Shown in pieces: positions 11,076-29,068 of a stretch of DNA of 38,261 nucleotides. The stretch spans positions 1 to 38,261 of the forward strand of contig CAWAPJ010000036.1 of the NCBI GenBank assembly GCA_963783885.1. The letters run 5' to 3'. The stretch is from Waddliaceae bacterium (GTDB taxonomy: Bacteria; Chlamydiota; Chlamydiia; Chlamydiales; SLFE01). The position numbers were made by a program, and so were the translations under genes. The notes beneath the pieces are model-generated. The model did no database searches. It was not told the DNA's origin and saw only the letters and a list, made by a program, of their open reading frames with translations. Positions within the stretch are counted from its first letter, which is position 1; the number at the start of each line of letters is the position of its first letter.

Positions 11076-12374
11076 ATGCCCGACAATAACCAATCAATAA
11101 TGCGATCCGCAAGCAAATTTTTCAGCGGCACCCTGCTCAGCCGGGCAACCGGACTTTTACGCGATGCCGCCATGGCAGCGGTTTTTGGAGCCAGCCCCGA
11201 GGTAGCCGCTTTCCTTCTCGCCTTCCGCCTCTCCCATCTGGCGAGACGAATTTTCGGAGAGGGGGCGCTGCAAACAGCGTTTATCCCCCAATTTGAAGAA
11301 ATCAGGCACAAAGATCCGGAAAAAGGGAAGGAATTCTTCTGCAGCCTTGCCTCTAGCATCGCCTGCCTGCTCGTAATCTTAATTCTGGCGGCGATGGGCG
11401 CTCTGGGACTGACCCTCTCCTTATTGGATTTAAGCGAGGGAAACAGGCAGGTCGTCCAACTGACGCTGATCATGATGCCAAGCCTTTTATTTATCTGCCT
11501 CTACGGACTCAACCTCTCGTTTCTGCAATGCGAAAAGCATTACTTTGTTTCAAGCGCCGCCCCTGTCTTCTTCAATCTTGTCTGGATAGCTACTGCGGCA
11601 ACCACCCGAAATGTCACAGCTATGGCCGTCATGATCAACGCCGCCTGCCTGGCCCAATGGGCCGCAACCCTGCCCCAAACGATCAGGGCCTTGCAAAAAT
11701 TCAGCTTTCGACTCAATCCAAAAAGCATAGCCGCGTTCTACGCCCCTTTTTCCCTTTCGCTGATCGGCGTCATCGCCACGCAGATCAACAGCGCGATCGA
11801 CCCGCTCTTTGCCCGCTTTGCCGACCCCGAGGGGCCCGCTCTTCTCTGGTATGCAATCCGTCTCCAGCAGCTCCCTCTCGCCCTTATCGGCATCGCCCTT
11901 TCAAGCGCGGCTCTTCCCCCGCTATCCCGAGCGCTGGAGCAGGGCAATGACACAACTTACCGCCGCCTTCTTTTCGGTACGATGAAAAAAAATGTCCTTC
12001 TGATGATCCCCATTACTTTGGCGCTCTTCTTTTTTGGAAGGGAGATTATCGAACTTGTCTTTGGACACGGGGATTTCGGGCCCGCCGACGCAGCGAAAAC
12101 GACCCTCTGCCTTTGGGGCTATGCGCTGGGGCTTCTCCCCTCGGCGCTTATCCTGATCGCCGCCCCGGCCTTTTATGCTCAAAAAAACTACCGAATCCCG
12201 ATGCAAGGTTCTGTCCTCTCCATGCTGAGCAATCTCATTTTCAATTCAATTTTCATCTTATTTTTAGGATGGGGACCCGCCAGCGTGGCTCTCTCGACAA
12301 GCCTAAGCGCCTTCCTGAACCTGTTCTATTTGATGTATTTCCTTAAGCGATCTCCAATCTTTGCCAAAACTTAG
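11076..12374 (+). CDS. murJ: Lipid II flippase MurJ (MviN)
   Basis: SRATGLLRD, AFRLSHLARRIFGEGA...AFIP, YAIRLQQLPLALIG; multiple TM segments; lies between nfo and rpsD. Confidence 0.93.
   Translation: MPDNNQSIMRSASKFFSGTLLSRATGLLRDAAMAAVFGASPEVAAFLLAFRLSHLARRIFGEGALQTAFIPQFEEIRHKDPEKGKEFFCSLASSIACLLVILILAAMGALGLTLSLLDLSEGNRQVVQLTLIMMPSLLFICLYGLNLSFLQCEKHYFVSSAAPVFFNLVWIATAATTRNVTAMAVMINAACLAQWAATLPQTIRALQKFSFRLNPKSIAAFYAPFSLSLIGVIATQINSAIDPLFARFADPEGPALLWYAIRLQQLPLALIGIALSSAALPPLSRALEQGNDTTYRRLLFGTMKKNVLLMIPITLALFFFGREIIELVFGHGDFGPADAAKTTLCLWGYALGLLPSALILIAAPAFYAQKNYRIPMQGSVLSMLSNLIFNSIFILFLGWGPASVALSTSLSAFLNLFYLMYFLKRSPIFAKT
12354..12374 (+). repeat. att-like direct repeat copy 1 (21 bp, contains the murJ stop)
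   Basis: CCAATCTTTGCCAAAACTTAG; identical copies at 14851 and 15708. Confidence 0.9.
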
Positions 12375-12413
12375 GCGATATTGAAAAAGACGTCGTTTTG
12401 TCAGCCCAAAAGA

Positions 12414-14261
12414 TCAATCGAGAATTGATGTAGCTCCATAGAGATTCCAATGCAGGCGGTTCAACAGATCCTGCTTATTTTGATCTGATAAATCATATTG
12501 CATCCCATTTTCGCATCTGTCTATCCAATCTAAAACCTCATTTAAAGTATAATCCGAACATTTTTTATAATGCTGCCAGGCATACTGTCCCATCCTAAAA
12601 CCAACGACCCTTTCAGATTTTTCTGAATTTTTTGCCTCTTCTCTTTGGGAGGTGGTCAGCAATTCCAAAAATTCAAGCTCAGGAAATCCCTCGTTCGAAG
12701 AAGTCTCCTCGAAATCAATCAACTCTACATTAGCCTTCAGGTAAATTCCCTTTTCTAAGGTTGTATATATCCCATAGGCCAGTGAAGGGTGAATGAAGAT
12801 CTCACGAACTTCTCCTTTTTTCATTCCCTTGATTCCATATGAAAGCCCTGGTATGGTTTCGATCAAATTCAGAAATGCGGGATTTCCTCCCACTCTGGTA
12901 TCGGCCAATGCCTCTCCTTTAGGTGTATTAATCGTATAGTGAAGTTTGACTTTTGTTTGATGATTTAACATCGATCCGGAACCTTGACGTAATGTTTTGC
13001 AGTAAAGTTTTTCAGGGTAAAGGCAGCAGAAAGAGAAATCATGGCTGAGATGATCGAAAAAACATTCTGTTTCTTGAAGACGATTGAGAATTTTCGAGAA
13101 GGCCCACACCATTTCATGATGAACAATGTCCCTAATACTGCAATGAAAGGAAAGATTTGAATCCTCATCTTTCATGCCTTCAATGAAAGACTGGCGATAG
13201 TTTTTTGTCTCTTTTTTTAAATCTTTCCAAATGCTTGCTGCAACCAAAAGAGGAAGTTTAGATCGTTCCGAAGGGGTAAAAGATAATGTCCTGGGGGCAT
13301 GAGCAATATTTGGCAGTTTAATGGATTCTTGAGGATAAATTTTATCAAACACATCATTTAGAAAAGTTTTGGAGGACAACATTTTTTTGACAATGCGGTC
13401 CTGTGTTTCTTCAAGTGTCGCAATAAAATGATCGGTAGCATCATCTTCTTTTAGTCTTCCAAAGACGAATGGAGGAAAAGACCTATCGAGTTTTTCTGAA
13501 CATCGAATGAGTTGGCTTCTCAGGTCTGCTGCTTCTTCATCAAGAGACCGGTATCCAAAGCTGGGTGTTATGTCTATGATTTCTTTCGTTGAACTTTCAG
13601 TAAGCAAAAGCTGATTCTTAATATAAGGATTTATATGGCTGCCTTTGCCTTGAACCACTCGGCTTTTGAGGGGAACTTGTTCTCGAGATAAGATAGAATC
13701 AGCGATGATTTCTGATCGGCTATGATAGAGAGCATTTTGCGTACCAAACCCGAGAAGAATTCCAATCAAAACCTTGTCATATTTGAGTGTTTTAGAAAAG
13801 TCTCCTTTTGGCTGCACCAAAGCATTGCATAACGACTGGGGTGTCACTTTCGGACCTAAAACATACTGAAATAAAGGAAGATTTTCCTGAATCGTTTTTA
13901 ATAGGAGAGGTTTGTTGATAAAAAGGATATCGATCCAATTGCTGGATTTGGATTCTGATTCACAACAATGAAGAATAATATCTCCTTCAGATGCTAGCTT
14001 AAGGCGGTTTAAGAGTCGGGCTCCTTCCCGCAAGAAAACAGAGCATTGATGGTTGAAACATTCTGCATGGAAACCATCGACGAAGTGATACCCCTGATGG
14101 CACACGGGTTTTTCTCCATACAAAACATAGCCCGCTTCTGATTTTTCTATTGATGTTCGGAAAAAACCGTCCAGAATCAGATATTCTTCAACAGACAGTT
14201 CAATACTCGAACATTTTGAAGAAAGTATTATAAAATATGTGAAAATAAACAGTTTATTCAT
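12414..14261 (-). CDS. Secreted protein with an uncharacterised N-terminal region and an FKBP-type peptidyl-prolyl isomerase domain
   Basis: Signal-like N-terminus; YCKTLRQGSG...VKLHYTI...LNLIETIPGLSYGIKGMKKGEVREIFIHPSLAYG...ANVELI is an FKBP_C signature. Confidence 0.85.
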   Translation of the reverse strand: MNKLFIFTYFIILSSKCSSIELSVEEYLILDGFFRTSIEKSEAGYVLYGEKPVCHQGYHFVDGFHAECFNHQCSVFLREGARLLNRLKLASEGDIILHCCESESKSSNWIDILFINKPLLLKTIQENLPLFQYVLGPKVTPQSLCNALVQPKGDFSKTLKYDKVLIGILLGFGTQNALYHSRSEIIADSILSREQVPLKSRVVQGKGSHINPYIKNQLLLTESSTKEIIDITPSFGYRSLDEEAADLRSQLIRCSEKLDRSFPPFVFGRLKEDDATDHFIATLEETQDRIVKKMLSSKTFLNDVFDKIYPQESIKLPNIAHAPRTLSFTPSERSKLPLLVAASIWKDLKKETKNYRQSFIEGMKDEDSNLSFHCSIRDIVHHEMVWAFSKILNRLQETECFFDHLSHDFSFCCLYPEKLYCKTLRQGSGSMLNHQTKVKLHYTINTPKGEALADTRVGGNPAFLNLIETIPGLSYGIKGMKKGEVREIFIHPSLAYGIYTTLEKGIYLKANVELIDFEETSSNEGFPELEFLELLTTSQREEAKNSEKSERVVGFRMGQYAWQHYKKCSDYTLNEVLDWIDRCENGMQYDLSDQNKQDLLNRLHWNLYGATSILD

Positions 14262-14280
14262 AAATAATTATAGTTGAAAA

Positions 14281-14658
14281 CTACTCCTTTATCGAAGACT
14301 TGTTGAAGGGCTCTTCAGAGCATCGGCAGCGATAAATGCAAGAATAGTTACCACAGCCATTACAAACATAATGCATGATGCGATGCCCATTAGGACAGGC
14401 ATCTTGAGCCGAGTGGCCTAAAAATTCATCTTTTATATAAAGACCTATATTATCGGAAAACAATACCGATATTGGGATAATCTCTTCACCTTGAATCAAA
14501 TAAAGACTATTATCTACTATTAATAAATCATTGGAAGAAATATATATTCTTTCCTCAAATTCGTGTTTTGAAGGGTTAGGAGAATCGATTGCTCCTTCAA
14601 CAAGGCTTGTAAAAATTACCAATAAAACAAAAAGAAAATAACGAATAGAAATTTGCAT
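14281..14658 (-). CDS. Small secreted protein with a C-terminal six-cysteine module
   Basis: Signal peptide ending VEG-A; CPNGHRIMHYVCNGCGNYSCIYRCRC; AAGGAG RBS. Confidence 0.85.
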   Translation of the reverse strand: MQISIRYFLFVLLVIFTSLVEGAIDSPNPSKHEFEERIYISSNDLLIVDNSLYLIQGEEIIPISVLFSDNIGLYIKDEFLGHSAQDACPNGHRIMHYVCNGCGNYSCIYRCRCSEEPFNKSSIKE

Positions 14659-14740
14659 GCTTTTCTCCTTTCGAATTGCATTAAAGCTTGAAATGATTTC
14701 ACAATGTGCAAAAAAAAATCAATACTTTTATCGAAAAGGC

Positions 14741-14773
14741 CCTATCAATTTAACCTATCAGATTGACCTATCA
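14741..14773 (+). repeat. Three CCTATCA direct repeats at a 13-bp period
   Basis: Copies start at 14741, 14754 and 14767. Confidence 0.75.
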
Positions 14774-14850
14774 TACTGATAACCCACTTTATACGCCGGG
14801 TTTAGGTGTTTGTAGTCTGTTTTACTTAATTAAAACCTGAATTCAAGACG

Positions 14851-14879
14851 CCAATCTTTGCCAAAACTTAGCTATTGCA
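14851..14879 (+). repeat. att-like direct repeat copy 2 (29 bp shared with copy 3)
   Basis: CCAATCTTTGCCAAAACTTAGCTATTGCA, identical to 15708-15736. Confidence 0.9.
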
Positions 14880-14927
14880 TCTGTATGATATCTGTGATAT
14901 GTTTCCATTTTCAATGGAAACATCATA

Positions 14928-15728
14928 AATCTTGTCTGGATAGCTACTGCGGCAACCACCCGAAATGTCACAGCTATGGCCGTCATGATCAACGCCGCCT
15001 GCCTGGCCCAATGGGCCGCAACCCTACCCCAAACGATCAGGGCCTTGCAAAAATTCAGCTTTCGACTCAATCCAAAAAGCATAGCCGCGTTCTACGCCCC
15101 TTTTTCCCTTTCGCTGATCGGCGTCATCGCCACGCAGATCAACAGCGCGATCGACCCGCTCTTTGCCCGCTTTGCCGACCCCGAGGGGCCCGCTCTTCTC
15201 TGGTATGCAATCCGTCTCCAGCAGCTCCCTCTCGCCCTTATCGGCATCGCCCTTTCAAGCGCGGCTCTTCCCCCGCTATCCCGAGCGCTGGAGCAGGGCA
15301 ATGACACAACTTACCGCCGCCTTCTTTTCGGTACGATGAAAAAAAATGTCCTTCTGATGATCCCCATTACTTTGGCGCTCTTCTTTTTTGGAAGGGAGAT
15401 TATCGAACTTGTCTTTGGACACGGGGATTTCGGGCCCGCCGACGCAGCGAAAACGACCCTCTGCCTTTGGGGCTATGCGCTGGGGCTTCTCCCCTCGGCG
15501 CTTATCCTGATCGCCGCCCCGGCCTTTTATGCTCAAAAAAACTACCGAATCCCGATACAAGGTTCTGTCCTCTCCATGCTGAGCAATCTCATTTTCAATT
15601 CAATTTTCATCTTATTTTTAGGATGGGGACCCGCCAGCGTGGCTCTCTCGACAAGCCTAAGCGCCTTCCTGAACCTGTTCTATTTGATGTATTTCCTTAA
15701 GCGATCTCCAATCTTTGCCAAAACTTAG
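14928..15728 (+). pseudogene. murJ: Duplicated 3' 801 bp of murJ (5'-truncated copy)
   Basis: Matches 11574-12374 at a constant offset of 3354; differences seen at 15026 (synonymous G>A) and 15557 (G>A, M>I). Confidence 0.93.
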
Positions 15729-15736
15729 CTATTGCA
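15708..15736 (+). repeat. att-like direct repeat copy 3
   Basis: Same 29-mer as 14851-14879. Confidence 0.9.
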
Positions 15737-15767
15737 CATGTTTGTTTTTCCTATTCAGATAACGACC

Positions 15768-15821
15768 ATTATGACACCAATTCCGTTTTAGACTTGACTA
15801 TTCCGGAATTTGTGTCATAAT
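15768..15821 (+). promoter_or_regulatory. Inverted repeat (17/18) overlapping a putative sigma66 promoter of the ATPase gene
   Basis: ATTATGACACCAATTCCG / CGGAATTTGTGTCATAAT; TTGACT(15794)-N16-CATAAT(15816); ATG 7 nt after the -10 box. Confidence 0.55.
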
Positions 15822-15828
15822 AGACATT

Positions 15829-16968
15829 ATGAAAAGGAGTCTACAAAAATACATTCTTGAGGACCTGCCAAAAAAAATAGTCCTGATTAGTGGACCTAGA
15901 CAAACGGGAAAAACCACTGTTTCAAAGCAACTTTATGACGATTTTGACTACTTTAATTATGACTCAAGCGAGGATCGGTTAGCAATCCAACAAAAAAATT
16001 GGGATCGATCGAAGGAGCTTGTTATCTTCGACGAACTTCACAAGATGAAACAGTGGAAACGATGGTTGAAAGGAATATTTGATACAGAGGGCATCCCTCC
16101 TCAAATTTTAGTAACTGGAAGCGCCAAAATGGACATTCACAAAAGGGTTGGCGATTCGCTTGCAGGACGATACTTTCAATACCGCCTCCATCCCTTAGAT
16201 TTAAAAGAAGTACACCAATTTTTGGACCTAAGTATAGAAGATGGATTCGAAACTCTGTGGCATTGTAGTGGATTTCCGGAACCATTCTTAGAGGGGAGTC
16301 AAACCTTTTATAAACGCTGGCGTCAGAGTCATATTGACATTATTTTACGACAGGATTTAATCGACCTATCATCTGTTCGTGATATTGAGTCAGTACAAAC
16401 TCTTGTGCTACTCTTAAGCCAACGGGCTGGATCAACTGTTTCATATGCTAATCTTGGTCGAGACCTCGACCGTGACCCCAATACCATCAAACGATGGCTA
16501 CAGCTTCTCGAAAATCTCTACATCATTCACCGCGTCACCCCATATAGTCGCAATATTGCACGTTCATTGAAAAAAGAACCCAAATTCTATTTCTATGACC
16601 ACGCCTTGGTAGCTGATGAGGGTGCTCGTCTGGAAAATATTGTTGCAAATGCATTGAAAAAGGAATTGCATTTTCTCGAAGACACTCAAGGTATTAAAGG
16701 AGCTCTTCACTACCTTAGAACTAAAGACGGTCAGGAACTCGATTTCCTTGTTAGTCTCGATGGCAAACCCACGCATCTTATTGAAGTAAAGATGAGTAAT
16801 GGGAAACCCGCCCGAGGATTTCAGCATTTTGGTAAATTGTTTTCAGATGCGCAGCACCTCCAGGTAGTAAGGAACCTTTTGCGCAACATGTCTTTACCCA
16901 GCGGACTCTTTATTAAACAAGTAATTCCCTGGCTAGCTGAACTTTCGTTTTCAAATCTTAGACCCTGA
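15829..16968 (+). CDS. AAA+ ATPase with DUF4143 C-terminal domain (COG1373 type)
   Basis: Walker A GPRQTGKT, Walker B IFDE, VTGSA, SLAGR, GFPE, KFYFYD, ELDF...IEVK. Confidence 0.9.
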   Translation: MKRSLQKYILEDLPKKIVLISGPRQTGKTTVSKQLYDDFDYFNYDSSEDRLAIQQKNWDRSKELVIFDELHKMKQWKRWLKGIFDTEGIPPQILVTGSAKMDIHKRVGDSLAGRYFQYRLHPLDLKEVHQFLDLSIEDGFETLWHCSGFPEPFLEGSQTFYKRWRQSHIDIILRQDLIDLSSVRDIESVQTLVLLLSQRAGSTVSYANLGRDLDRDPNTIKRWLQLLENLYIIHRVTPYSRNIARSLKKEPKFYFYDHALVADEGARLENIVANALKKELHFLEDTQGIKGALHYLRTKDGQELDFLVSLDGKPTHLIEVKMSNGKPARGFQHFGKLFSDAQHLQVVRNLLRNMSLPSGLFIKQVIPWLAELSFSNLRP

Positions 16969-16974
16969 TTGCTA
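16961..16974 (+). repeat. Solo terminal-repeat fragment of the 18518-18678 element
   Basis: GACCCTGATTGCTA, identical to 18518-18531; supplies the ATPase TGA stop. Confidence 0.7.
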
Positions 16975-16994: not shown

Positions 16995-18197
16995 TTATAA
17001 CTTTTTACATTCAAGTTTGATATGTAATCGCCCATCCTCAATTAGTTGTGAAAGAGGCGGGCCATGATTCGAATTACCTGTCCCGAACCATCTACCATTG
17101 CCATAATTTTTTTCCTTATAAAACGGCTGAGTAGAATGGTGGTGTTTGTTATTTCCTGTACCAAATGTCCATTTACAAGACAGATAGATCGTCTTTTTAG
17201 GAGCTTCTTTTATTGTTAAGTACACGCCATGTCCCCCAGTCGCCCTCTCTTCGATCATTATTATCCAGGTATGGCCGAACATCTGAAATTCCTCGGTTTC
17301 TTTGAGTGTTATTGTTTTATGATGAATTACATCTAAAGAAAGAGGCAAAGCAAAAGAATGGCTTGCTTTTTTTCTCGAAAAAGATACTGTCACCATTTCA
17401 GGTGGAAAACCCCGTCTTGTCTTGCTTTTTGATCCATCGATTACTTGTTTTATATAATCGACTTTTTGAAAATCATCGAGTATATCATCATTAAGAATAA
17501 GAGAAGTTTCACCTTTTCCAAAATTGTTGAACTTAACGCAATCTATCAGGCGATCGCCAAATCCCAGATCCATTTTGAGCAAATCTCCGGATTTTTGCCT
17601 CTTCTGGAGATTTTTCTTTTCCCACTTTCTAAGGATACTGTAAATTTCCGATTCGTAAAGTGGAAGATATGGTGATCGCAACAAATGGTATAGAGTGCGC
17701 GGCTTTGGATTCAAACCGAAAAGATTTTTAACATCGGAAAATCGATAAAACTCAGAGGTTAGAGAGTCTAAATAGACAATATCATCTAATATGGAGTTAG
17801 TTAATTTCTTTTCTCCAGACTCAAGTTTTTCGAGAACAGGGCCCCTCAACACATCCAGGAGCTGTTTTTCTCCGACCATGTTGGCATAGGCCATTAATTT
17901 GACCATGTCTTCAAGGTTTGAAGGCATGCATTTTTTACCATAGCGGTAGTGTAAATAAGACAGAAATGTTTTGCGGGAGACATCATTGATTTGAATGGGC
18001 TTACTGCCGGGATCTTCAGAAAATCCGCGGCTTGTCAACAATGTCGAAAAATATTCATTTTCTTTTATCAACATAATTTCATGGACAGGAATGAAGCTGC
18101 CGTCTAGTAAAAATAAGATATCGCACTTTTGCCTCTCCTCTTCTGAAGAAAAAGGAAGCGATTTCCAATCAATGGCTTCGGATTCCTTCTCGATCAT
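16995..18197 (-). CDS. BTB-BACK-MATH-like protein (putative Cullin-3 adaptor mimic)
   Basis: BTB: CDILFLLDGSFIPVHEIMLIKENEYFSTLL...INDVSRKTFLSYLHYRY. BACK: LLRSPYLPLYESEIYSILRKW...LIDCVKF. MATH-like: FQMFGHTWII...GVYL...LIEDGRLHIKLEC. Confidence 0.8.
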   Translation of the reverse strand: MIEKESEAIDWKSLPFSSEEERQKCDILFLLDGSFIPVHEIMLIKENEYFSTLLTSRGFSEDPGSKPIQINDVSRKTFLSYLHYRYGKKCMPSNLEDMVKLMAYANMVGEKQLLDVLRGPVLEKLESGEKKLTNSILDDIVYLDSLTSEFYRFSDVKNLFGLNPKPRTLYHLLRSPYLPLYESEIYSILRKWEKKNLQKRQKSGDLLKMDLGFGDRLIDCVKFNNFGKGETSLILNDDILDDFQKVDYIKQVIDGSKSKTRRGFPPEMVTVSFSRKKASHSFALPLSLDVIHHKTITLKETEEFQMFGHTWIIMIEERATGGHGVYLTIKEAPKKTIYLSCKWTFGTGNNKHHHSTQPFYKEKNYGNGRWFGTGNSNHGPPLSQLIEDGRLHIKLECKKL

Positions 18198-18699
18198 CGA
18201 CTGGATATACTGCCAATGTATTGTTTATGGGGAAGAGTATTGATTTCAAAAAAAATGTTTTGAATATCCTGATTCCGTGGAAATTCGCCTGCAATCCTCA
18301 ACAGGAAGAAAAAATGACTTTTGTTCGTTAAATCAAAATCATATTTATATCGACTAAGAACCTCATGCGCTATTTTTGAAGCTTTTTTTCTGATATCTGA
18401 ATTCTTAGCATCTTTCTTTTTAGGCGTATAAACCTTGTAGGAATCTCCAACTTTCTGTATCCAAACATTTGTTTTTTTCTCATACTGAGAATTATATTTA
18501 TTGACTATATTTTCTAGGACCCTGATTGCTACCTAAACTTGTTGTTAAAGTCTTTCGTTGGATTCAGATGCGTAGACTCGATTTGAAGGCAAGGGTTATC
18601 CCTTGCCTGATAATCGAGTCTTACGCAGATGAATTCAATGAAAGATTTTAACAACAAGTTTAGGTAGCAATCAGGGTCTAGGGATATGTTGTCTTGCAT
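18194..18699 (-). pseudogene. 113-aa ORF (probable N-terminal part of the BTB gene) interrupted by a MITE
   Basis: Removing 18518-18681 restores ATG CAA GAC AAC ATA TCC CTA GAA AAT ATA..., open for 342 nt to TGA at 18194, which overlaps the BTB ATG (ATGA). Confidence 0.75.
18518..18678. mobile_element. 161-bp fully palindromic MITE with a 3-bp TAG target-site duplication
   Basis: Termini GACCCTGATTGCTACCTAAACTTGTTGTTAAA / TTTAACAACAAGTTTAGGTAGCAATCAGGGTC; TAG at 18515-18517 and 18679-18681. Confidence 0.9.
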
Positions 18700-18765: not shown

Positions 18766-19386
18766 TTACTTGGTGTGGGCGAGGAAGTCGCAGATTTCCG
18801 GAAGGTTGATCTCGAGAGGATAGGAGATCTGCTCAACCATAGGAACGGCAAGGAGCGTTCCGGTATACTTTTCACGGTCGAGAGAGAGGTACTCGGGCAT
18901 CTCGCCACGAGGATTATCCAGGCTCTCGGTAATGGATTTCATTTTTTGAGACTTTTCCTTGATCGACACCTGCATCCCCGGCTTCACCTGAAATGAGCGG
19001 ATGTTGACCTTTTTTCCATTCACAAGCACGTGGCCGTGGGAAATTAATTGGTGGGCCCCGAAAATCGTCGACGCAAAGCCCAGCTTGTAAACAACTGTAT
19101 CCAAACGACATTCAAGAAGCTCGGCCAGATTGTGGGCTGTCGCTCCCGCTTGCTGGGCAGCCTGCTTATAATACCGGACCAGCTGTTTCTCGGTCAGCAT
19201 CCCGTAAACGGCTTTGAGCTTCTGCTTTTCATCGAGCTGAAGTCCGAAATCCGACTTTTTGCGACGCCTGGCTCCGTGCATTCCAGGGGGGTTAGGCTTA
19301 TGGATCAAAGGGTTGCGCCTGCGCCCGAAAATGTTGACTCCGAATCGGCGGGCAACGCGGTTTTTAGCTCCTGTAAAACGACTCAT
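18766..19386 (-). CDS. rpsD: 30S ribosomal protein S4
   Basis: MSRFTG...PPGMHG...SDFGLQLDEKQKLK...LECRLD...VNGKKVNIRS; AGGAG RBS before ATG 19386. Confidence 0.97.
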   Translation of the reverse strand: MSRFTGAKNRVARRFGVNIFGRRRNPLIHKPNPPGMHGARRRKKSDFGLQLDEKQKLKAVYGMLTEKQLVRYYKQAAQQAGATAHNLAELLECRLDTVVYKLGFASTIFGAHQLISHGHVLVNGKKVNIRSFQVKPGMQVSIKEKSQKMKSITESLDNPRGEMPEYLSLDREKYTGTLLAVPMVEQISYPLEINLPEICDFLAHTK

Positions 19387-19506
19387 TATTTCTCCTGTCA
19401 TTTGATACTGTAAGGCTAAATTATTTCATAGATCACCCATTTTTTGCAACCTTGCTTGTTTAAAAACCTCCCCAGACCATAAGATAAAATTTTAAATTAC
19501 TAACTT

Positions 19507-24093: not shown

Positions 24094-25683
24094 ATGTTCC
24101 ATATGCGCAGTTATAAAGACCATTTAGAATCTCTTCAAAAAACTCAAAATAAACAGGTTAAAAGAAAGCCTGTCTTTCGGGCTTCCTCAATCTTTCCCGT
24201 AATACAAACAAATGAGGCTTCAAGCCGGGTTCTCTTTATGGGTTATTGGCTTCTCAAGAGGCAAATCACTCAAATTACAGGGGTTTATACGCTTAGATCC
24301 GAAAACGGCGCAGTTCTCGCCCGCTCTTCCGAGACCATAGACAATCCCAGAGTCCACACCCTGGAACTCAAAGATCAGCTCAAGCTGGCAGGACTTGACC
24401 CCGGCCAGCCTTTTCGGGGAAGCCTTGAGTGCGAATTTTACTCTTCCCTCCCGATGGTTTTTCCCTTCCCGGCTACCACTATCAACTATTACGGCCCCTA
24501 TTTCAATACCGTCGTCCACACCGCCCAAAGAGTGTACAATGACTTTGACGACATGTCTGTCAATTCCATCGCATCGGTTCCCGAATCGGGCTTCAATGTA
24601 GTTGCCAACGAGAATCAAAAGCCTTTCTTCACTTTAATCAATGGAATCGATCCTGTTCCAGGCGCTTCGATCGATATGACCTTTTACAACGCAGAAGGTG
24701 AAACCCTCAAAACAAAGCTCGGGCTTGGAACTTTAAAACCCTATGAGACCAAATGGATTTTTCCTTCCGATCATTGCGATTTGCAAACCTTTTTAAAAGG
24801 GAAACCGGGGGCCGCTAAAATTCGGTTTGACGTCTCCTGGGTGTTTCCCCGATTGATCGTCGGAAATATCCAGTCAAATCCCGAGACTCTTGCCATTACG
24901 CATTCATATTATGACTGCACCGATGCCGATGCAGAAGCCGATTATTGGCAAGAGGAGAAGCAAGGCTGGTATCCGGCAACGTTAATGATCCCCCTTATCA
25001 TAAGCAGCAATCACTTCACGAATGCCACTTTTTACCCGATTTATTCCCCCTCGAAGTTTTCCATAGACGTTGAGATCTACAATCGGGAAGGAAAGCTTCT
25101 GGGCAAAAAGGAAGCAGCCCTAAACATTGAGGCCCCTCTAAATAAATTCCAAAAGATTTTCCTTGCTGATCTTTGCGAAGAGATGGGTATCGATAGCGAC
25201 TCAAAGTTAACTGCCCGCCTCATCGCCAAAACCGAAAAAGGCAGCCGCATTCCCTCGCGCATCAAATGCGCTGTCGATATCGGAACGCTCGGCGGTCAAT
25301 TCCCCTGCAATATCTGCACTAATCTGCAGCCTTTCATCCCCTCGTGGGACAACAAGCCTTTCACATTTAAATGGTGCCCCGTGCTCGCGGGAGAGAATGG
25401 AAAAGCCTCGATCTGGATCGTCAATTCGTCCCAACACAAAAACTACACCCGCTCAGCAGAAATCGACCTGACATTTTACCGCTCCGAAGACACCGAGACA
25501 CTTCAAAGAACCGCTACACTCCCCCCGTACGGCATATCCCTCATCGAACGGGACGACGAATTGGAGCAGTTCCTTCAAGGTAACGTTGGCTGGATGACAG
25601 CCACCTCAAGCAACCCCCACATCCTGACTTACTACTTCTTTGAAAACGAATCAGGAGTCGTCGGGGGAGACCACGGCTTTTAG
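24094..25683 (+). CDS. Hypothetical protein built of four ~125-aa beta-rich repeats
   Basis: 529-aa ORF; recurring motif TLRSENG / TFYNAEG / EIYNREG / TFYRSED. Confidence 0.8.
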   Translation: MFHMRSYKDHLESLQKTQNKQVKRKPVFRASSIFPVIQTNEASSRVLFMGYWLLKRQITQITGVYTLRSENGAVLARSSETIDNPRVHTLELKDQLKLAGLDPGQPFRGSLECEFYSSLPMVFPFPATTINYYGPYFNTVVHTAQRVYNDFDDMSVNSIASVPESGFNVVANENQKPFFTLINGIDPVPGASIDMTFYNAEGETLKTKLGLGTLKPYETKWIFPSDHCDLQTFLKGKPGAAKIRFDVSWVFPRLIVGNIQSNPETLAITHSYYDCTDADAEADYWQEEKQGWYPATLMIPLIISSNHFTNATFYPIYSPSKFSIDVEIYNREGKLLGKKEAALNIEAPLNKFQKIFLADLCEEMGIDSDSKLTARLIAKTEKGSRIPSRIKCAVDIGTLGGQFPCNICTNLQPFIPSWDNKPFTFKWCPVLAGENGKASIWIVNSSQHKNYTRSAEIDLTFYRSEDTETLQRTATLPPYGISLIERDDELEQFLQGNVGWMTATSSNPHILTYYFFENESGVVGGDHGF

Positions 25684-25712
25684 CCTGGATTTTTAACTGT
25701 CAAAGTCGGGAT

Positions 25713-27128
25713 TTACCGAACGCTCTCAACACCGGGAGGCTTCCATGTGCCGTCTAAAATTGAAGGGGGGTTAGTATTCGGCCAATACATGCGCATTGTG
25801 AGCGCAAAAGGACCTTCGGGAGCGGGCAGCCAGTTGGCTTCCTTTTCTTTTCCTGGGGACTCATGCTGAAAATAGAGCGTGAGCGATCCATCTTTGTTAA
25901 ATTTCAACTTGTCCCTTGGACTCACCGTAAACTTGTTTAAGGGATTGGGATAAAACCAAAGACCATTGTCAATCGTGTACATTGTTATTGACCAGAACGC
26001 CAAAGGATTGACGGGCGGCAACTGCCCCTTGGGAAAGGTCAGTGTGTATTTATGAGCTCCTGTCAACTTTTCCCCACTGCTATCTTGCTCTGTCGTTGGA
26101 TAAACAGAAACATTGGGAAGTTGCGAGGGCCAGCCAACGGCGGCCCACACCGCACGCCGAAGGTAATCGGTTCCATAGCGGCCTCCGCTAAGAAGCACCC
26201 GCCAACCGTTGACAATCTTTCCCATCTCATACCATTTGGCCCCTATTCGTTTGAGCGCTGCCTCAGGAATTTCTGATAAAGCACTCTTCCACTTAGGATC
26301 GAGCTTGCTAAGGTCAAAAGGCTTACCCGGTATAAGACCAATCTTGGCCATGCGAGCTAGGATCGGGCCGTCTTCTGGTGCCGGCGGGGCTATGCTTCCC
26401 ATGAGCTTGGCGAGCATATTGAAATATTCCGTTGTTCCTAAGGCCAGTATCGCCGTCTGCGGCTTTTCAGTCATGCTAAAGCCCGGATTTGGGTTGACCT
26501 CAGGGGCTTTAAAAGTATAGGGCTTGCCATAAGCTGAGAGGGGAGCAACTTTGTAATTGGCCTGAAGAGCATGAACCTTGGCAAGGTCTTCTTTTGTGCC
26601 CAGGGAGTAAGTTCTGCCCAAGATAACCACATAGCGAGTCGGAAAGCTGATGTGGGTCATACCCTCCGGCACTGTCCCCTTCCAGTCAGGACCCGTGAAG
26701 AGATAGGTCATCGCTTTATCGCCGCTTGTGTTAGTGCCGACACTTTCCCTAACAATCATCCAAAGATCAACAAGCTCGAATGTAAAGAAACGATCTTTGA
26801 TCTCCGGATGGCTGAACACCTGAGGTTCGGACAAGTCAAGCCAAGCCACCGAATACAGCGTATCGGCATTTGCGGCCGAGACCCCGCGGTAATTAGCAGG
26901 AGGGTACTTCTTAACATTGAAAAATGTTCCCATAGGGGCCTTCATTTCCTCCACAGCGGCCACATTAGTCATCTGAACGCGGGTGACCTCCGATGTGATA
27001 AGCGAATAACCGTAAATGTAAGCATCCAGCGCAATCTCTTGGACTTGCTTAAGCTCAAGGTCTTGAGCAGATATTGGTACAATAAATAACGCGAAGAAGG
27101 CAAAAATTGCCTTAAGTTTTTGTGACAT
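25713..27128 (-). CDS. Exported DUF1254/DUF1214 domain protein
   Basis: Signal peptide; DAYIYGY, NADTLYSVAWLDL, YTLTFPKGQLPP...FWSITMY, NWLPAPEGPFALTMRMYWP. Confidence 0.9.
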   Translation of the reverse strand: MSQKLKAIFAFFALFIVPISAQDLELKQVQEIALDAYIYGYSLITSEVTRVQMTNVAAVEEMKAPMGTFFNVKKYPPANYRGVSAANADTLYSVAWLDLSEPQVFSHPEIKDRFFTFELVDLWMIVRESVGTNTSGDKAMTYLFTGPDWKGTVPEGMTHISFPTRYVVILGRTYSLGTKEDLAKVHALQANYKVAPLSAYGKPYTFKAPEVNPNPGFSMTEKPQTAILALGTTEYFNMLAKLMGSIAPPAPEDGPILARMAKIGLIPGKPFDLSKLDPKWKSALSEIPEAALKRIGAKWYEMGKIVNGWRVLLSGGRYGTDYLRRAVWAAVGWPSQLPNVSVYPTTEQDSSGEKLTGAHKYTLTFPKGQLPPVNPLAFWSITMYTIDNGLWFYPNPLNKFTVSPRDKLKFNKDGSLTLYFQHESPGKEKEANWLPAPEGPFALTMRMYWPNTNPPSILDGTWKPPGVESVR

Positions 27129-27362: not shown

Positions 27363-27809
27363 TTAGGTGGGAGAAATACAGGAAAGAAGATCCCCATAAG
27401 CCGGAAGACCCGAGACGTATTGATAGCTGGATTTGCTGGGGTCGTACCAGCCTGTTTTGATCTCGTTTTGATTGGCGATGGCGATAAACGGGGCCTGCAG
27501 ATAGTAGTTATATCCAACGATTTGCTGCAGCACACGGGAAGTTAAAGGAACCGCCTTGCACTCGATTACGATCAGCGGATAGAGTTCATAATCGGGATGT
27601 ATTCCCGGGACGATTGAAGCGATATCGACCCGGCAATCGGGCAAATCGGCAGTTTGAGATAAGTGGGGAAATTGACGGAGCGCTTTTTCAACAGTTAGTG
27701 AATGCGCAGGAAAACCAAGCATGTCTGTCATGAGGTTGATAAGGTTTTGCCGAACGACCTCTTCGGGAAGCTTAGCAACCCACTCTCTTCTTACCGGGCA
27801 ATAGATCAA
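27363..27809 (-). CDS. Stand-alone HsdR N-terminal-like (PD-(D/E)xK) domain protein
   Basis: CPVRREWVAKLPEEVVRQ, RVDI, IVIECKA, QQIVGYN. Confidence 0.8.
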   Translation of the reverse strand: MIYCPVRREWVAKLPEEVVRQNLINLMTDMLGFPAHSLTVEKALRQFPHLSQTADLPDCRVDIASIVPGIHPDYELYPLIVIECKAVPLTSRVLQQIVGYNYYLQAPFIAIANQNEIKTGWYDPSKSSYQYVSGLPAYGDLLSCISPT

Positions 27810-28438
27810 TATTCGGGCTCAATGATTCCAAAATTGTCATCTTTTCTGCGATAGATGACCTTAAGGCGATTGTCCTCTTCGCACTTATACACAAGGAAGA
27901 GGTCTCCCGAAAGGTCAAGACGCATCACCGCCTCATCCAACCTGAGCGTTTTCAGCGGGATCGTCTCCTGGGAAACCACTTCATGACGATAATCTTCCAT
28001 CAGCTTGCGCTGATTTTCATCTTCGATCTCGTCATTGATTTCTTCCAGCTCATCTTTATACCGCTGCACGACATTGACATTCATATCGATCATCGCAATG
28101 CTGCGGGCCTGATGTTCCACCAGTTTTTTCTTATAGCGCCGAACCTGCCTCGTTAGCTTATCGACTGCAATGTCAATTGCGGCATACATATCGTTTGCGA
28201 CGCCGTGACTGCGGATTTTAACATGATTGACCCGGACATCGATATCGCAGCGATGTTCCAGCTTTTGAATATCCATCGTGATCGTCACATCGATAATTCG
28301 ATGCGAAAAACGCTCGATCTTCGACATTTTATCAATCGCGTAGTCTTTCATCGCTTCGGTCACCGCGACATTCCGTCCGATAACGTGGATGCTGTATTCT
28401 TCGTTTTCAAATTCAATAGCTTTGGCTTTTCCTTTCAT
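27806..28438 (-). CDS. hpf: Ribosome hibernation promoting factor, long form
   Basis: GRNVAVTEAMKDYAIDK, DMYAAIDIAVDKLTRQVRRYK, C-terminal DEAVMRL...VIYRRKDDNFGIIEP. Confidence 0.92.
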   Translation of the reverse strand: MKGKAKAIEFENEEYSIHVIGRNVAVTEAMKDYAIDKMSKIERFSHRIIDVTITMDIQKLEHRCDIDVRVNHVKIRSHGVANDMYAAIDIAVDKLTRQVRRYKKKLVEHQARSIAMIDMNVNVVQRYKDELEEINDEIEDENQRKLMEDYRHEVVSQETIPLKTLRLDEAVMRLDLSGDLFLVYKCEEDNRLKVIYRRKDDNFGIIEPEY

Positions 28439-28462
28439 ATCAAAACCTCTTTTTCACAAATT

Positions 28463-29068
28463 CTACTTCATTTCGTGAATTCTCTCAACCGTATCGACAA
28501 TGGCCTGAGTCTTCGCGTCGATTTCTATGTTGACGAAGTCTCCCGCTTCTTTGAATCCGAGGGTAGTGGCTGATAAAGTTTCGGGAATCAAATGCACGGT
28601 AAATCGGTTATCGATCACCTTAACAACAGTCAAACTCGCCCCGTCAATCGCAACAAACCCTTTAGGAAGAATATACTTCATCCACTCAAAAGGGCACATC
28701 AAAGTAATAATTCTCTCATTTTGGCGCTTCTCCACCTTCTCAATCGGAGCCACTCCCCAGACATGTCCTGAAAGAACATGCCCTCCAACCTCATCTCCGA
28801 GCCTTATCGACCTTTCGATATTGACCCGCTTTCCCGCTTCAAGATCCTTAAGCGTCGTCTTGCTCAAAGTTTCGGCAATAACATCGAAATAGACAAGGCG
28901 CTCGTCAACGCGCACAACTGTGAGGCAGACGCCATCTACCGCGACGCTCGCTCCCCCGCATAGGTCCCGAATCAGATCATCCGGCAGACGAACGGCGAAT
29001 GTCAACAAATTGGGTTTAACCTCCAAAGAAGCCACCTCAAACAATCCCTTGACAATCCCTGAGAACAT
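28463..29068 (-). CDS. ribE: Riboflavin synthase (alpha chain)
   Basis: MFSGIV, SVAVDGVCLTV, VNIER, GGHVLSGHV, KGFVAIDGASLTV. Confidence 0.95.
   Translation of the reverse strand: MFSGIVKGLFEVASLEVKPNLLTFAVRLPDDLIRDLCGGASVAVDGVCLTVVRVDERLVYFDVIAETLSKTTLKDLEAGKRVNIERSIRLGDEVGGHVLSGHVWGVAPIEKVEKRQNERIITLMCPFEWMKYILPKGFVAIDGASLTVVKVIDNRFTVHLIPETLSATTLGFKEAGDFVNIEIDAKTQAIVDTVERIHEMK

Follow-up and report, generated by a model that had tools for sequence, protein, structure and literature searches.

A repeat-flanked two-gene block at the 3′ end of murJ in a Waddliaceae bacterium looks like a recombination scar

Introduction

Integrative islands and prophages use tyrosine or serine integrases to enter the 3′ ends of tRNA, tmRNA, and protein genes. 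A circle bearing part of the target gene can also integrate through a Campbell-type single crossover, a route known from non-replicating plasmids and from merodiploids formed after transformation. Further, displacement of rhs C termini was reportedly described by Jackson in 2009. Orphaned 3′ ends at T6SS and Rhs effector-immunity loci are attributed to homology-facilitated illegitimate recombination (PMC5361080).

Here, we describe the interval between murJ and rpsD in the genome of a Waddliaceae bacterium (G000). The window, i.e. the whole stretch of DNA that was analysed, is 38,261 nucleotides long (contig CAWAPJ010000036.1 of assembly GCA_963783885.1, referred to as C36). A first-pass annotation had read the 3′ end of murJ as an integration hotspot at which att-like repeats surround cargo served by an unlinked recombinase. 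The elements of that reading, including a 2,476-bp cassette, a 48-bp spacer, ATPase and BTB genes, and rpsD, were all confirmed in position, and the interpretation as a whole is partly supported: the variable gap and the repeat-bounded cassette are borne out, but the site-specific att mechanism is not. We conclude that the locus looks like a recombination scar in an insertion-tolerant gap rather than a dedicated docking site.

Results

The features of the murJ–rpsD interval are as follows (coordinates refer to the window).

11076..12374, + strand: murJ, intact, a 432-aa ORF for the lipid II flippase (Pfam MurJ, E 2.7e-87)
11574..12374, + strand: repeat copy B1, the 3′ 801 bp of functional murJ, matching 14928-15728
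12354..12374, + strand: 21-mer copy 1, the last 6 codons of murJ and its TAG stop
12375..14850, no strand: cassette of 2,476 bp, GC 37% versus 54% for murJ, absent at the G001 site
12414..14261, − strand: gene for a 615-aa protein with a hydrophobic N terminus (by eye) and an FKBP-type domain at residues 433-497
14281..14658, − strand: gene for a 125-aa Cys-rich protein with a hydrophobic N terminus
14659..14850, no strand: cassette upstream intergenic region, 33% GC
14851..14879, + strand: 29-nt orphan murJ end, i.e. 21-mer copy 2 followed by CTATTGCA
14880..14927, no strand: spacer S, 48 nt, with a perfect 11-bp hairpin at 14899-14923
14928..15728, + strand: repeat copy B2, the displaced 801-bp murJ tail, a pseudogene fragment
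15708..15736, + strand: 21-mer copy 3 followed by CTATTGCA, the native junction of murJ end and downstream DNA, matching the G001 junction
15829..16968, + strand: AAA_14/DUF4143 ATPase gene, present in G001 and absent from the G002 interval
16995..18197, − strand: BTB/POZ-domain protein gene, with IS terminal-repeat sequences on its flanks
18503..18693, no strand: MITE from the ends of a 1.15-kb DDE_Tnp_1 insertion sequence
18766..19401, − strand: rpsD, convergent with murJ

Three copies of the 21-mer (CCAATCTTTGCCAAAACTTAG) are present in the window (12354-12374, 14851-14871, and 15708-15728), a match seen in 0/100 shuffles, and a search of the 2.16-Mb genome, as proposed in the first-pass annotation, returned no copy beyond these three on C36. 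The sequence is the native coding end of murJ, and the murJ gene of G002 stops at the same position. As had been claimed, the cassette is bounded exactly by the first two copies (21/21 nt at 12354 and 14851). The 29-mer formed by the 21-mer and CTATTGCA is found in the genome at 14851 and 15708 only; CTATTGCA represents the first 8 nt of native DNA downstream of murJ, and the native junction in G001 differs from it by 1 nt. Copy 3, which had been counted as a third att-like repeat, is the end of a homologous murJ 3′ duplicate, in which 11574-12374 and 14928-15728 align over 801 bp at 99.75% identity (2 mismatches). This arrangement is not what a site-specific mechanism predicts, and the three 21-mers are merely the murJ end appearing three times. 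We note that the polarity of the two mismatches is the same: B1 has the G001 allele at both variable sites and agrees with G002 at the one site that was located in that genome, and B2 carries both derived substitutions, at 15026 and 15557 (two of two, a small sample). Further, B2 and the DNA downstream of it align unbroken to the G001 murJ-ATPase junction, which indicates that B2 is the native tail. Spacer S is unique in the genome, and no source for it or for the cassette upstream region was found in six family genomes; k-mer matches were near chance expectation. Spacer S contains an internal direct repeat besides its perfect palindrome, and a sigma-70-like site in it is directed into the cassette.

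We compared the interval across three members of the genus (G000, G001, and G002). The MurJ protein is 91% identical to that of G001 and 81% identical to that of G002 at the amino acid level. The murJ–rpsD gap holds only a MITE in G002 and the ATPase and BTB genes in G001, whereas in G000 it holds the cassette block, ATPase, BTB, and MITE. The order in G001 is murJ-ATPase-BTB-rpsD, with a single 21-mer and neither cassette nor duplicate, i.e. an empty site. Because G001 lacks the block and G002 differs again, the content of the interval varies and the 3,354-bp block is of recent origin; its youth is also indicated by the divergence of B1 from B2 (0.25%), set against ~10-12% between G000 and G001 in this region. 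The block was probably gained once this lineage had separated from that of G001. The 21-mer core does not border the ATPase-BTB block, and the stop codon of the ATPase gene sits within an IS end fragment. The comparison of murJ–rpsD intervals that the first-pass annotation called for thus revealed varying content among the three genus members but no different cargo within the same core.

The cassette is a two-gene block for putatively secreted proteins. The 615-aa protein matched Pfam FKBP_C (E 4e-9) and, in the PDB, Mip/FKBP chains (E 1e-4 to 1e-2), and gave no usable match in a protein atlas. Its ortholog in G002 (79% aa identity) lies at another locus, beside an enoyl-CoA-hydratase-like gene and not murJ. 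The 125-aa protein matched no Pfam or NCBIfam family, and the gene pair is conserved, recurring in G002, G018, G029, G003, G007, and G035. Neither cassette ORF has a recombinase domain, in agreement with the description of the cargo as integrase-less, and a plasmid collection searched with the cassette DNA and proteins gave no match. A copy-and-paste origin of the cargos was rejected: a second copy of the C36 cassette is absent from the 89%-complete genome, and the cargo at C29 (see below) is a mosaic of paralogs (75-91% identity). The only other member of the cargo family in G000 is a pseudogenised copy at C4 15024-19172, the proteins of which are only 35-38% identical to those of C36. With respect to its host gene, the C4 copy is oriented as the C36 cassette is to murJ. 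An exact 24-nt repeat of the end of that gene, itself ending on TTAG, bounds the copy, and the corresponding G001 site is empty. Both cargo copies in G000 carry a stop-anchored 21-24-nt signature, at sites that are both empty in G001. No host-tail repeat was found at eight other cargo-family loci in five other genomes; two significant repeats in G029 (contig C101) represent homology between tandem cargo copies.

The site-specific reading of the locus finds little support in these sequences. In public metagenome and genome collections, the 21-mer was found only in G001 and in two identical Saccharibacteria-labelled stretches; the latter have no other similarity to the window and were set aside as chance hits. 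No other cargo bounded by the 21-mer was present in the collections searched, with three genomes available for the genus itself, which runs counter to the proposal of a cassette-accumulating site with a shared core. A recombinase acting in trans had also been proposed. The genome encodes two full PF00589 (Phage_integrase) frames of Xer-like size (297 and 305 aa) and one broken gene, all on contigs other than the 38-kb contig, which has no integrase; PF00239 gave 0 matches, and no resolvase-type (serine recombinase) gene was found in the 88.9%-complete genome. The weak inverted similarity reported for the cassette ends was matched by 659/2000 shuffles, i.e. chance level, and no terminal inverted repeats above chance were detected. 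Repeats of 21 and 24 nt do not represent a fixed short target-site duplication of the transposon type, and the resident IS5-type IS makes 3-bp duplications. We found no IntI, attI, or attC at the locus, and the only strong hairpin lies in the spacer, outside the cassette. A search for dif-like motifs with a consensus sequence returned only ATG-Lys start-codon contexts and was dropped.

Three more inserts in G000 are flanked by direct repeats of host gene ends, and these repeats are unrelated in sequence:

C4: flanking repeat 24 nt; one copy and no cargo in G001
C19: flanking repeat ~85 nt, AbiEi/AbiEii cargo; one copy and no cargo in G001
C29: flanking repeat 164 nt, exact; one copy and no cargo in G001

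The differing sequence and length of these repeats point to a generic recombination route and not to a murJ-specific att site. An orphan glgA tail lies 1.1 kb downstream of glgA. Among 1410 ORFs of G000, 25 gene-tail copies lie downstream and 9 upstream of the gene, compared with 4 downstream and 5 upstream in G001 (1.2 Mb, 736 ORFs), where 60 windows of 20 kb were each scanned separately, so that pairs straddling window edges are missed. The few downstream copies in G001 indicate that the process is not general in the genus. Repeats of 16-60 nt ending exactly on a stop codon numbered 5 in G000 (0-2 at five control offsets), and none was found in the 1.2-Mb G001 scan (0-7 at control offsets). 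Among the five, C3 is a tandem paralog, and the C19 repeat extends 5 nt beyond the stop when one mismatch is allowed. Further, TTAG followed by G at the junction occurred in 3/5 stop-anchored repeats compared with 22/1772 ORF ends; we withdrew this motif as a triple because at C19 the G already followed in the ancestral sequence and the repeat extends past the stop, leaving two cases. The abundant IS5-type IS/MITE of the genome prefers CTWAG targets, and the stop context of murJ is ACTTAG.

As assembly-independent support, we used Logan contigs of four public runs (X1-X4). An X2 contig (12345-12760) joins murJ to the cassette, contigs of X1, X2, and X3 stop exactly at 12374, and those of X3 are interrupted at 12203, which is one of two sites of difference between the repeat copies. 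Contigs over the 801-bp repeat have about twice the depth of the flanks (6.9 versus 2.3-3.7 in X2), a contig depth that is not a copy number and is only suggestive support for the duplication. The segment 14712-14945, which holds the right cassette end, the 29-mer, and the spacer, is covered by no Logan contig in any of the four runs. In an X4 contig, a different sequence is joined to the 615-aa gene at 12482.

Discussion

We consider the chances about even that the native tail of murJ was displaced by recombination of a homology-anchored or duplicative kind. On this view, the space between murJ and rpsD, two convergent genes, tolerates extra DNA, and murJ itself would have supplied the homology, with no site-specific recombinase. 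By one route (a), a sibling strain would donate a fragment or circle consisting of murJ tail, cassette, 29-nt older orphan end, and spacer, which would enter murJ through a single homologous crossover and be joined illegitimately at 11574, i.e. by homology-facilitated illegitimate recombination or a Campbell-type single crossover. By another (b), the murJ tail would first be duplicated in tandem (809 bp, with 48 nt of filler), and the cassette would then enter behind the first stop codon and duplicate 21 nt. Both routes yield the observed order and are not separable here; either would leave the upstream murJ intact and the downstream 801-bp copy as a displaced, decaying tail. Acting on the 801-bp repeats, host RecA could excise the whole block as a circle of 3,354 bp and then reinsert it. 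Homology-anchored insertion is favoured by the 801 bp of near-identical murJ that flanks the insert, far longer than any att core, by the 8 nt of native downstream DNA retained in the 29-nt orphan, as a displaced tail would, by the absence of a recombinase from the cassette and their small number in the genome, and by the intact upstream ORF, both derived substitutions being in B2. Spacer S (48 nt, palindrome) is compatible with filler, and clear microhomology at the illegitimate junction was not seen. Against it, the left edge of the cassette lies exactly on the stop codon and the repeat there is only 21 nt, and no donor with the cassette directly after a murJ stop was found in G002, six family genomes, or plasmids for route (a). 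The absence of any source for spacer S in six family genomes, the lack of contig coverage over 14712-14945, and the rarity of downstream tail copies in G001 also weigh against it. The recurrence at C4 (24 nt, also ending on TTAG) is unexpected and fits untargeted recombination poorly.

That recurrence bears on the rather unlikely alternative that the cassette is a non-autonomous mobile unit, inserted directly after the TAG stop codon with duplication of 21-24 nt of target by an enzyme whose gene lies elsewhere (either a tyrosine recombinase or an enzyme of the transposase type, cutting with a stagger of about two helical turns), the 801-bp duplicate being a separate, later event. The exact 21-nt repeat and empty G001 site, the C4 copy with its shared orientation, gene-end repeat, and TTAG end at another empty G001 site, the excess of stop-ending repeats (5 versus 0-2 at controls), and the resemblance of the ACTTAG context to the CTWAG preference of the IS5-type element would all fit such a unit. 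However, neither cassette has a recombinase in or near it in a genome with no serine and only two intact tyrosine frames, the 21- and 24-nt repeats have only their last few bases in common, the cassette ends lack terminal inverted repeats above chance, eight loci of the cargo family in five other genomes lack the host-tail repeat, and the five stop-codon cases include the C3 tandem paralog and the C19 repeat that runs 5 nt past the stop. We also know of no mobile element with 21-24-bp target duplications, which counts against this view. It is doubtful, and more so than the mobile unit as such, that the 125-aa and 615-aa pair is a new kind of integrase-less cassette that enters after the TAG of convergent genes with a 21-24-nt duplication, in which case insertion may start at breaks made by the IS5-type transposase at CTWAG sites.

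A single complex replication accident, with template switching of the MMBIR/FoSTeS type, is unlikely, although one such event would cover the short and long duplications together with a filler that has a perfect palindrome and an internal direct repeat. The fork would collapse at the murJ stop, copy the cassette from another template, return 21 nt upstream, exit after 8 bases, make 48 nt of snap-back filler, and re-enter murJ 809 nt upstream, and the duplications of 24, ~85, and 164 nt elsewhere fit restarts at variable distance. However, the 89%-complete genome offers no second cassette copy as a template, microhomology was not evident by eye at the four junctions, and to our knowledge template switching of this type is not documented in chlamydiae, which we also count against it. 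Very unlikely is an assembly artefact in which variants with and without the cassette were concatenated to give a false 801-bp duplicate and spacer. The source genome is metagenome-assembled and the right-hand junctions were unseen in the four runs, but many IS copies of 1.1-1.6 kb were resolved within contigs, indicating that 801-bp repeats are within reach of the assembly; the spacer is part of neither variant; and repeat contigs have about twice the depth of flanks and cassette in X1, X2, and X3, which mixed variants would not produce because the flanks would rise as well.

Read as homology-anchored insertion, the locus would be a clean, datable example of accessory genes entering an environmental chlamydia without dedicated mobile-element machinery. 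murJ is kept whole and its old tail displaced, and the long repeat would leave the block poised for RecA-mediated loss or spread; if excision and reinsertion by RecA occur, this would be integrase-less mobility by homology. Together with the three other inserts, G000 and G001 offer a small natural series in which to study how DNA is added at the ends of convergent genes in IS-rich symbionts. For annotation, we note that att-like repeats at gene ends need not imply a site-specific element. Should the 21-24-nt stop-anchored signature of the cargo family be more than chance, it would suggest a route of insertion that has not been described.

Integron arrays and XerCD/dif elements (IMEX) resemble the locus in that cargo lacking a recombinase occupies one chromosomal site and would be served in trans, but no IntI, attI, or attC was found here, and the 21-mer and spacer are not dif-like. 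As with integrative islands and prophages, the cargo lies between direct repeats of a gene end and a relative has the empty site; unlike them, the locus has no integrase, no reuse of the core, and no inverted core-type sites above chance, and its third repeat lies within 801 bp of homology. Campbell-type integration likewise leaves direct repeats around the insert, equal in length to the shared homology, and RecA can reverse it, but here there is no replicon or vector, and the block contains an additional 29-nt orphan and 48 nt of filler. Compared with the Rhs and T6SS orphans, the host gene encodes a housekeeping flippase rather than a polymorphic toxin, its displaced tail matches the working one at 99.75% identity and brings no new C terminus, and the cargo is unrelated to the host gene (PMC5361080). 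The shared plan is an intact upstream gene, new DNA, and the old 3′ end downstream, and successive events give a string of orphans, to which the 29-nt and 801-nt orphans described here would correspond (PMC5361080).

Organization of the murJ-rpsD interval

The window is the complete contig C36 (38,261 bp) of a 2.16-Mb genome (G000; 46 contigs, 88.9% complete). The first-pass annotation had described short repeats, a cassette, a spacer and a second 3′ copy of murJ, and we found each of these where it had been placed.

11076-12374, plus strand: intact murJ (Pfam MurJ, E 2.7e-87)
12354, 14851 and 15708 (starts): copies 1-3 of the 21-mer CCAATCTTTGCCAAAACTTAG, the terminal six codons of murJ with the TAG stop
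12375-14850: 2,476-bp cassette between copies 1 and 2, with two genes
Cassette, minus strand: 125-aa Cys-rich protein
Cassette, minus strand: 615-aa protein, weak FKBP-type domain by domain search
14880-14927: 48-nt spacer holding a perfect 11-bp hairpin, 3′ of the 29-nt orphan (copy 2 plus 8 nt)
14928-15728: 801-bp duplicate of murJ 11574-12374, two mismatches, terminating in copy 3
Contiguous 3′ of the duplicate: AAA_14/DUF4143 ATPase gene, BTB gene, MITE and rpsD (convergent)
18503-18693: MITE composed of end sequences from a 1.15-kb IS (DDE_Tnp_1 transposase, 279 aa)

None of 100 shuffles matched CCAATCTTTGCCAAAACTTAG, and a search of the rest of the 2.16-Mb genome found no copy beyond the three in C36. 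The 8 nt that extend copy 2, CTATTGCA, recur identically at copy 3. The GC content of the cassette is 37%, against 54% for murJ, and a family search assigned no family to the 125-aa protein. We note that the murJ open frame spans 438-455 aa in this genus and a few relatives and 495-585 aa in most other Chlamydiales searched; a C-terminal extension is therefore missing here. Further, a 27-nt inverted repeat at 15759-15830 (85% complementary, fold z-score -3.95), just 5′ of the ATPase start, overlaps a promoter-like site and may be an operator. At 16956-16974, the ATPase gene terminates at a stop codon that belongs to a fragment of an IS terminal repeat, which places the BTB gene between IS ends.

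The insert is absent from this interval in genus-mates and appears young

In G001, the closest relative in the genome set (88-93% DNA identity at the locus), murJ is followed directly by CTATTTCA, the ATPase gene, the BTB gene and rpsD, and its murJ-rpsD interval lacks both the cassette and the 801-bp duplicate. In G002, a second genus-mate (72-81% identity), the murJ stop occupies the same codon position, and a ~170-bp MITE lies between murJ and rpsD. The interval thus differs in all three genus members, which bears out the part of the first-pass annotation that saw a hotspot here, and comparison of the murJ ends across the genus identifies the 21-mer as native murJ sequence. The upstream 801-bp copy (B1) and the downstream duplicate (B2) diverge by 0.25%, compared with ~10-12% between G000 and G001 over the same DNA, from which we infer that the 3,354-bp block is probably much younger than the species split, barring gene conversion homogenising the copies. 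At the two variable sites, B1 carries the G001 base at both and the G002 base at one, and both substitutions, one synonymous and the other M376I, are therefore derived in B2, as fits a displaced, non-functional tail.

Support for the assembly

Because dozens of IS copies of 1.1-1.6 kb are resolved inside contigs of this assembly, an 801-bp repeat lies within its reach. We aligned Logan contigs of four public sequencing runs (X1-X4) to the locus. In X1, X2 and X3, contigs terminate precisely at 12374, marking a branch point, and one X2 contig (12345-12760) bridges the junction between murJ and the cassette; contigs of X3 are interrupted at 12203, which is one of the two positions that differ between B1 and B2. 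Depth over the repeat is about twice that of the murJ 5′ part, the cassette and the ATPase region (in X2, 6.9 compared with 2.3-3.7 elsewhere), although depth in Logan contigs is not copy number. The doubling favors two repeat copies per genome, since flank depth too would be higher if cassette-bearing and cassette-free strains were mixed. An assembly artefact retains a small probability because the right-hand junctions lack contig cover in all four runs. In one X4 contig, 171 nt of other sequence adjoin the 615-aa gene at 12482; the X4 sample therefore contains a near-identical gene as a variant or in a different context.

Tail repeats at other inserts in the genome

We scanned the last 120 nt of the 1410 G000 ORFs of at least 200 aa and found 25 copies of gene tails downstream and 9 upstream, many of them tandem paralogs. 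Three of the downstream copies flank inserts whose site is empty in G001.

C4, 15000-19196: 4.1-kb block, exact 24-nt flanking repeat taken from the 3′ end of a CN-hydrolase/GNAT gene
C19, 32939-35371: AbiEi/AbiEii-ankyrin pair, flanking repeat of ~85 nt, 81% alike
C29, 107666-112244: 4.25-kb mosaic with an ankyrin gene, exact 164-bp flanking repeat

In G001 and G002, the C19 repeat corresponds to the region where two convergent genes overlap; the C29 repeat is likewise an overlap region of two convergent genes. Both regions are single-copy in G001, and both inserts split convergent genes that formerly overlapped. A diverged tail copy of glgA (~35-44 nt) lies 1.1 kb downstream of that gene, abutting a MITE end. 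In G001, tail copies number 4 downstream and 5 upstream (736 ORFs, 1.2 Mb), and this process is not a general feature of the genus. We also observed, on G000 C5, a near-exact tandem duplication of ~1.3 kb (24714-26044 and 27571-28901; spacing 2,857 bp) that begins with tRNA-like sequence.

The pairing of the two cassette genes is conserved across scattered genomes of Chlamydiales, some of which contain several diverged paralogs. The orthologous pair in G002 (79% and 66% aa, 82% nt identity) adjoins an enoyl-CoA-hydratase-like gene rather than murJ, and in G001 the sole counterpart is a paralog with 35% identity. A search of the plasmid collection found nothing similar. The cassette contains no mobility gene and has the look of an ordinary accessory operon of chlamydiae that encodes secreted proteins. 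Within G000, the cargo family has one other member, the C4 block. It is pseudogenised, holds a 1.56-kb IS and a MITE, and is oriented to its host gene as the cassette is to murJ; its 24-nt repeat and the murJ 21-mer both end exactly on a TTAG stop. G001 carries its own copy of the C4 cassette (77-79% nt identity) 235 kb from the empty site. The 1.56-kb IS (C4 17032-18590) also occurs in at least 16 places in G001 and is listed as 100% identical between the two genomes, whose shared genes differ by ~7-12%, suggesting recent exchange between the lineages.

Five repeats of 16-60 nt in G000 terminate precisely at a stop codon, compared with 0-2 at five control offsets; the 1.2 Mb of G001 contains 0. 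Among the five, the one in C3 is a tandem paralog, another sits in C1, and that in C19 continues 5 nt beyond the stop if one mismatch is allowed. Every raw stop-anchored match in the G001 scan came from a repeat-rich gene cluster at G001 C4 ~747500-760000 (L134; period ~105 nt), each unit of which ends in the same stop context, ...GATTAATGCTTTAG. The recurring stop-codon signature in G000 merits a wider survey. G000 contains 89 terminal repeats of the 1.15-kb IS and its MITEs, with C at -4 in 85 and TTA or TAA at -3 to -1 in 31, a pattern that suggests a CTWAG target and a 3-bp duplication; the stop context of murJ is ACTTAG.

Mechanism of insertion

The first-pass annotation had proposed an att site served by a recombinase acting in trans, a reading that fared poorly. 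The 88.9%-complete genome encodes two Phage_integrase-domain frames of full length (297 and 305 aa, similar in size to Xer proteins) and one broken one, all on contigs other than C36, and no resolvase-type recombinase. In public contigs, the 21-mer occurs in G001 and, by chance, in two unrelated records, and we saw no different cargo bounded by it there, a weak test given a genus set of three genomes; the ATPase-BTB block lacks the core at its bounds. Further, the third "att" is the end of the 801-bp homology, which weighs against site-specific integration because homologous, not site-specific, recombination predicts such homology. The inverted similarity claimed for the cassette ends is at chance level (659 of 2000 shuffles score at least as high). 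That the repeats at the other inserts vary in sequence and length argues against a murJ-specific att site and favors a generic process, either homology-based or duplicative, that inserts DNA where convergent genes end. We found no host-tail repeat at 8 other cargo-family loci in five other genomes, and we consider an insertion route specific to the cassette improbable.

Most likely, either of two routes would account for the locus. DNA from a sibling strain carrying murJ tail, cassette, 29-nt orphan and spacer may have been acquired through a single crossover within murJ combined with an illegitimate join at 11574. Alternatively, a tandem duplication of 809 bp, including 48 nt of filler sequence, could have come first, and the cassette could then have inserted behind the first stop codon, duplicating 21 nt. 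In either case murJ would stay whole and its native tail would be displaced. The 801-bp repeats should permit RecA excision of a 3,354-bp circle, restoring a G001-like site; a site-specific route would instead predict a 2,497-bp circle.

Overall, we conclude that the locus is a real insertion that can be dated, lying in a variable gap between convergent gene ends and accompanied by a displaced gene tail. It is a new example of an already known kind of recombination scar, the closest described counterpart being the strings of orphaned 3′ ends found at Rhs and T6SS loci (PMC5361080).
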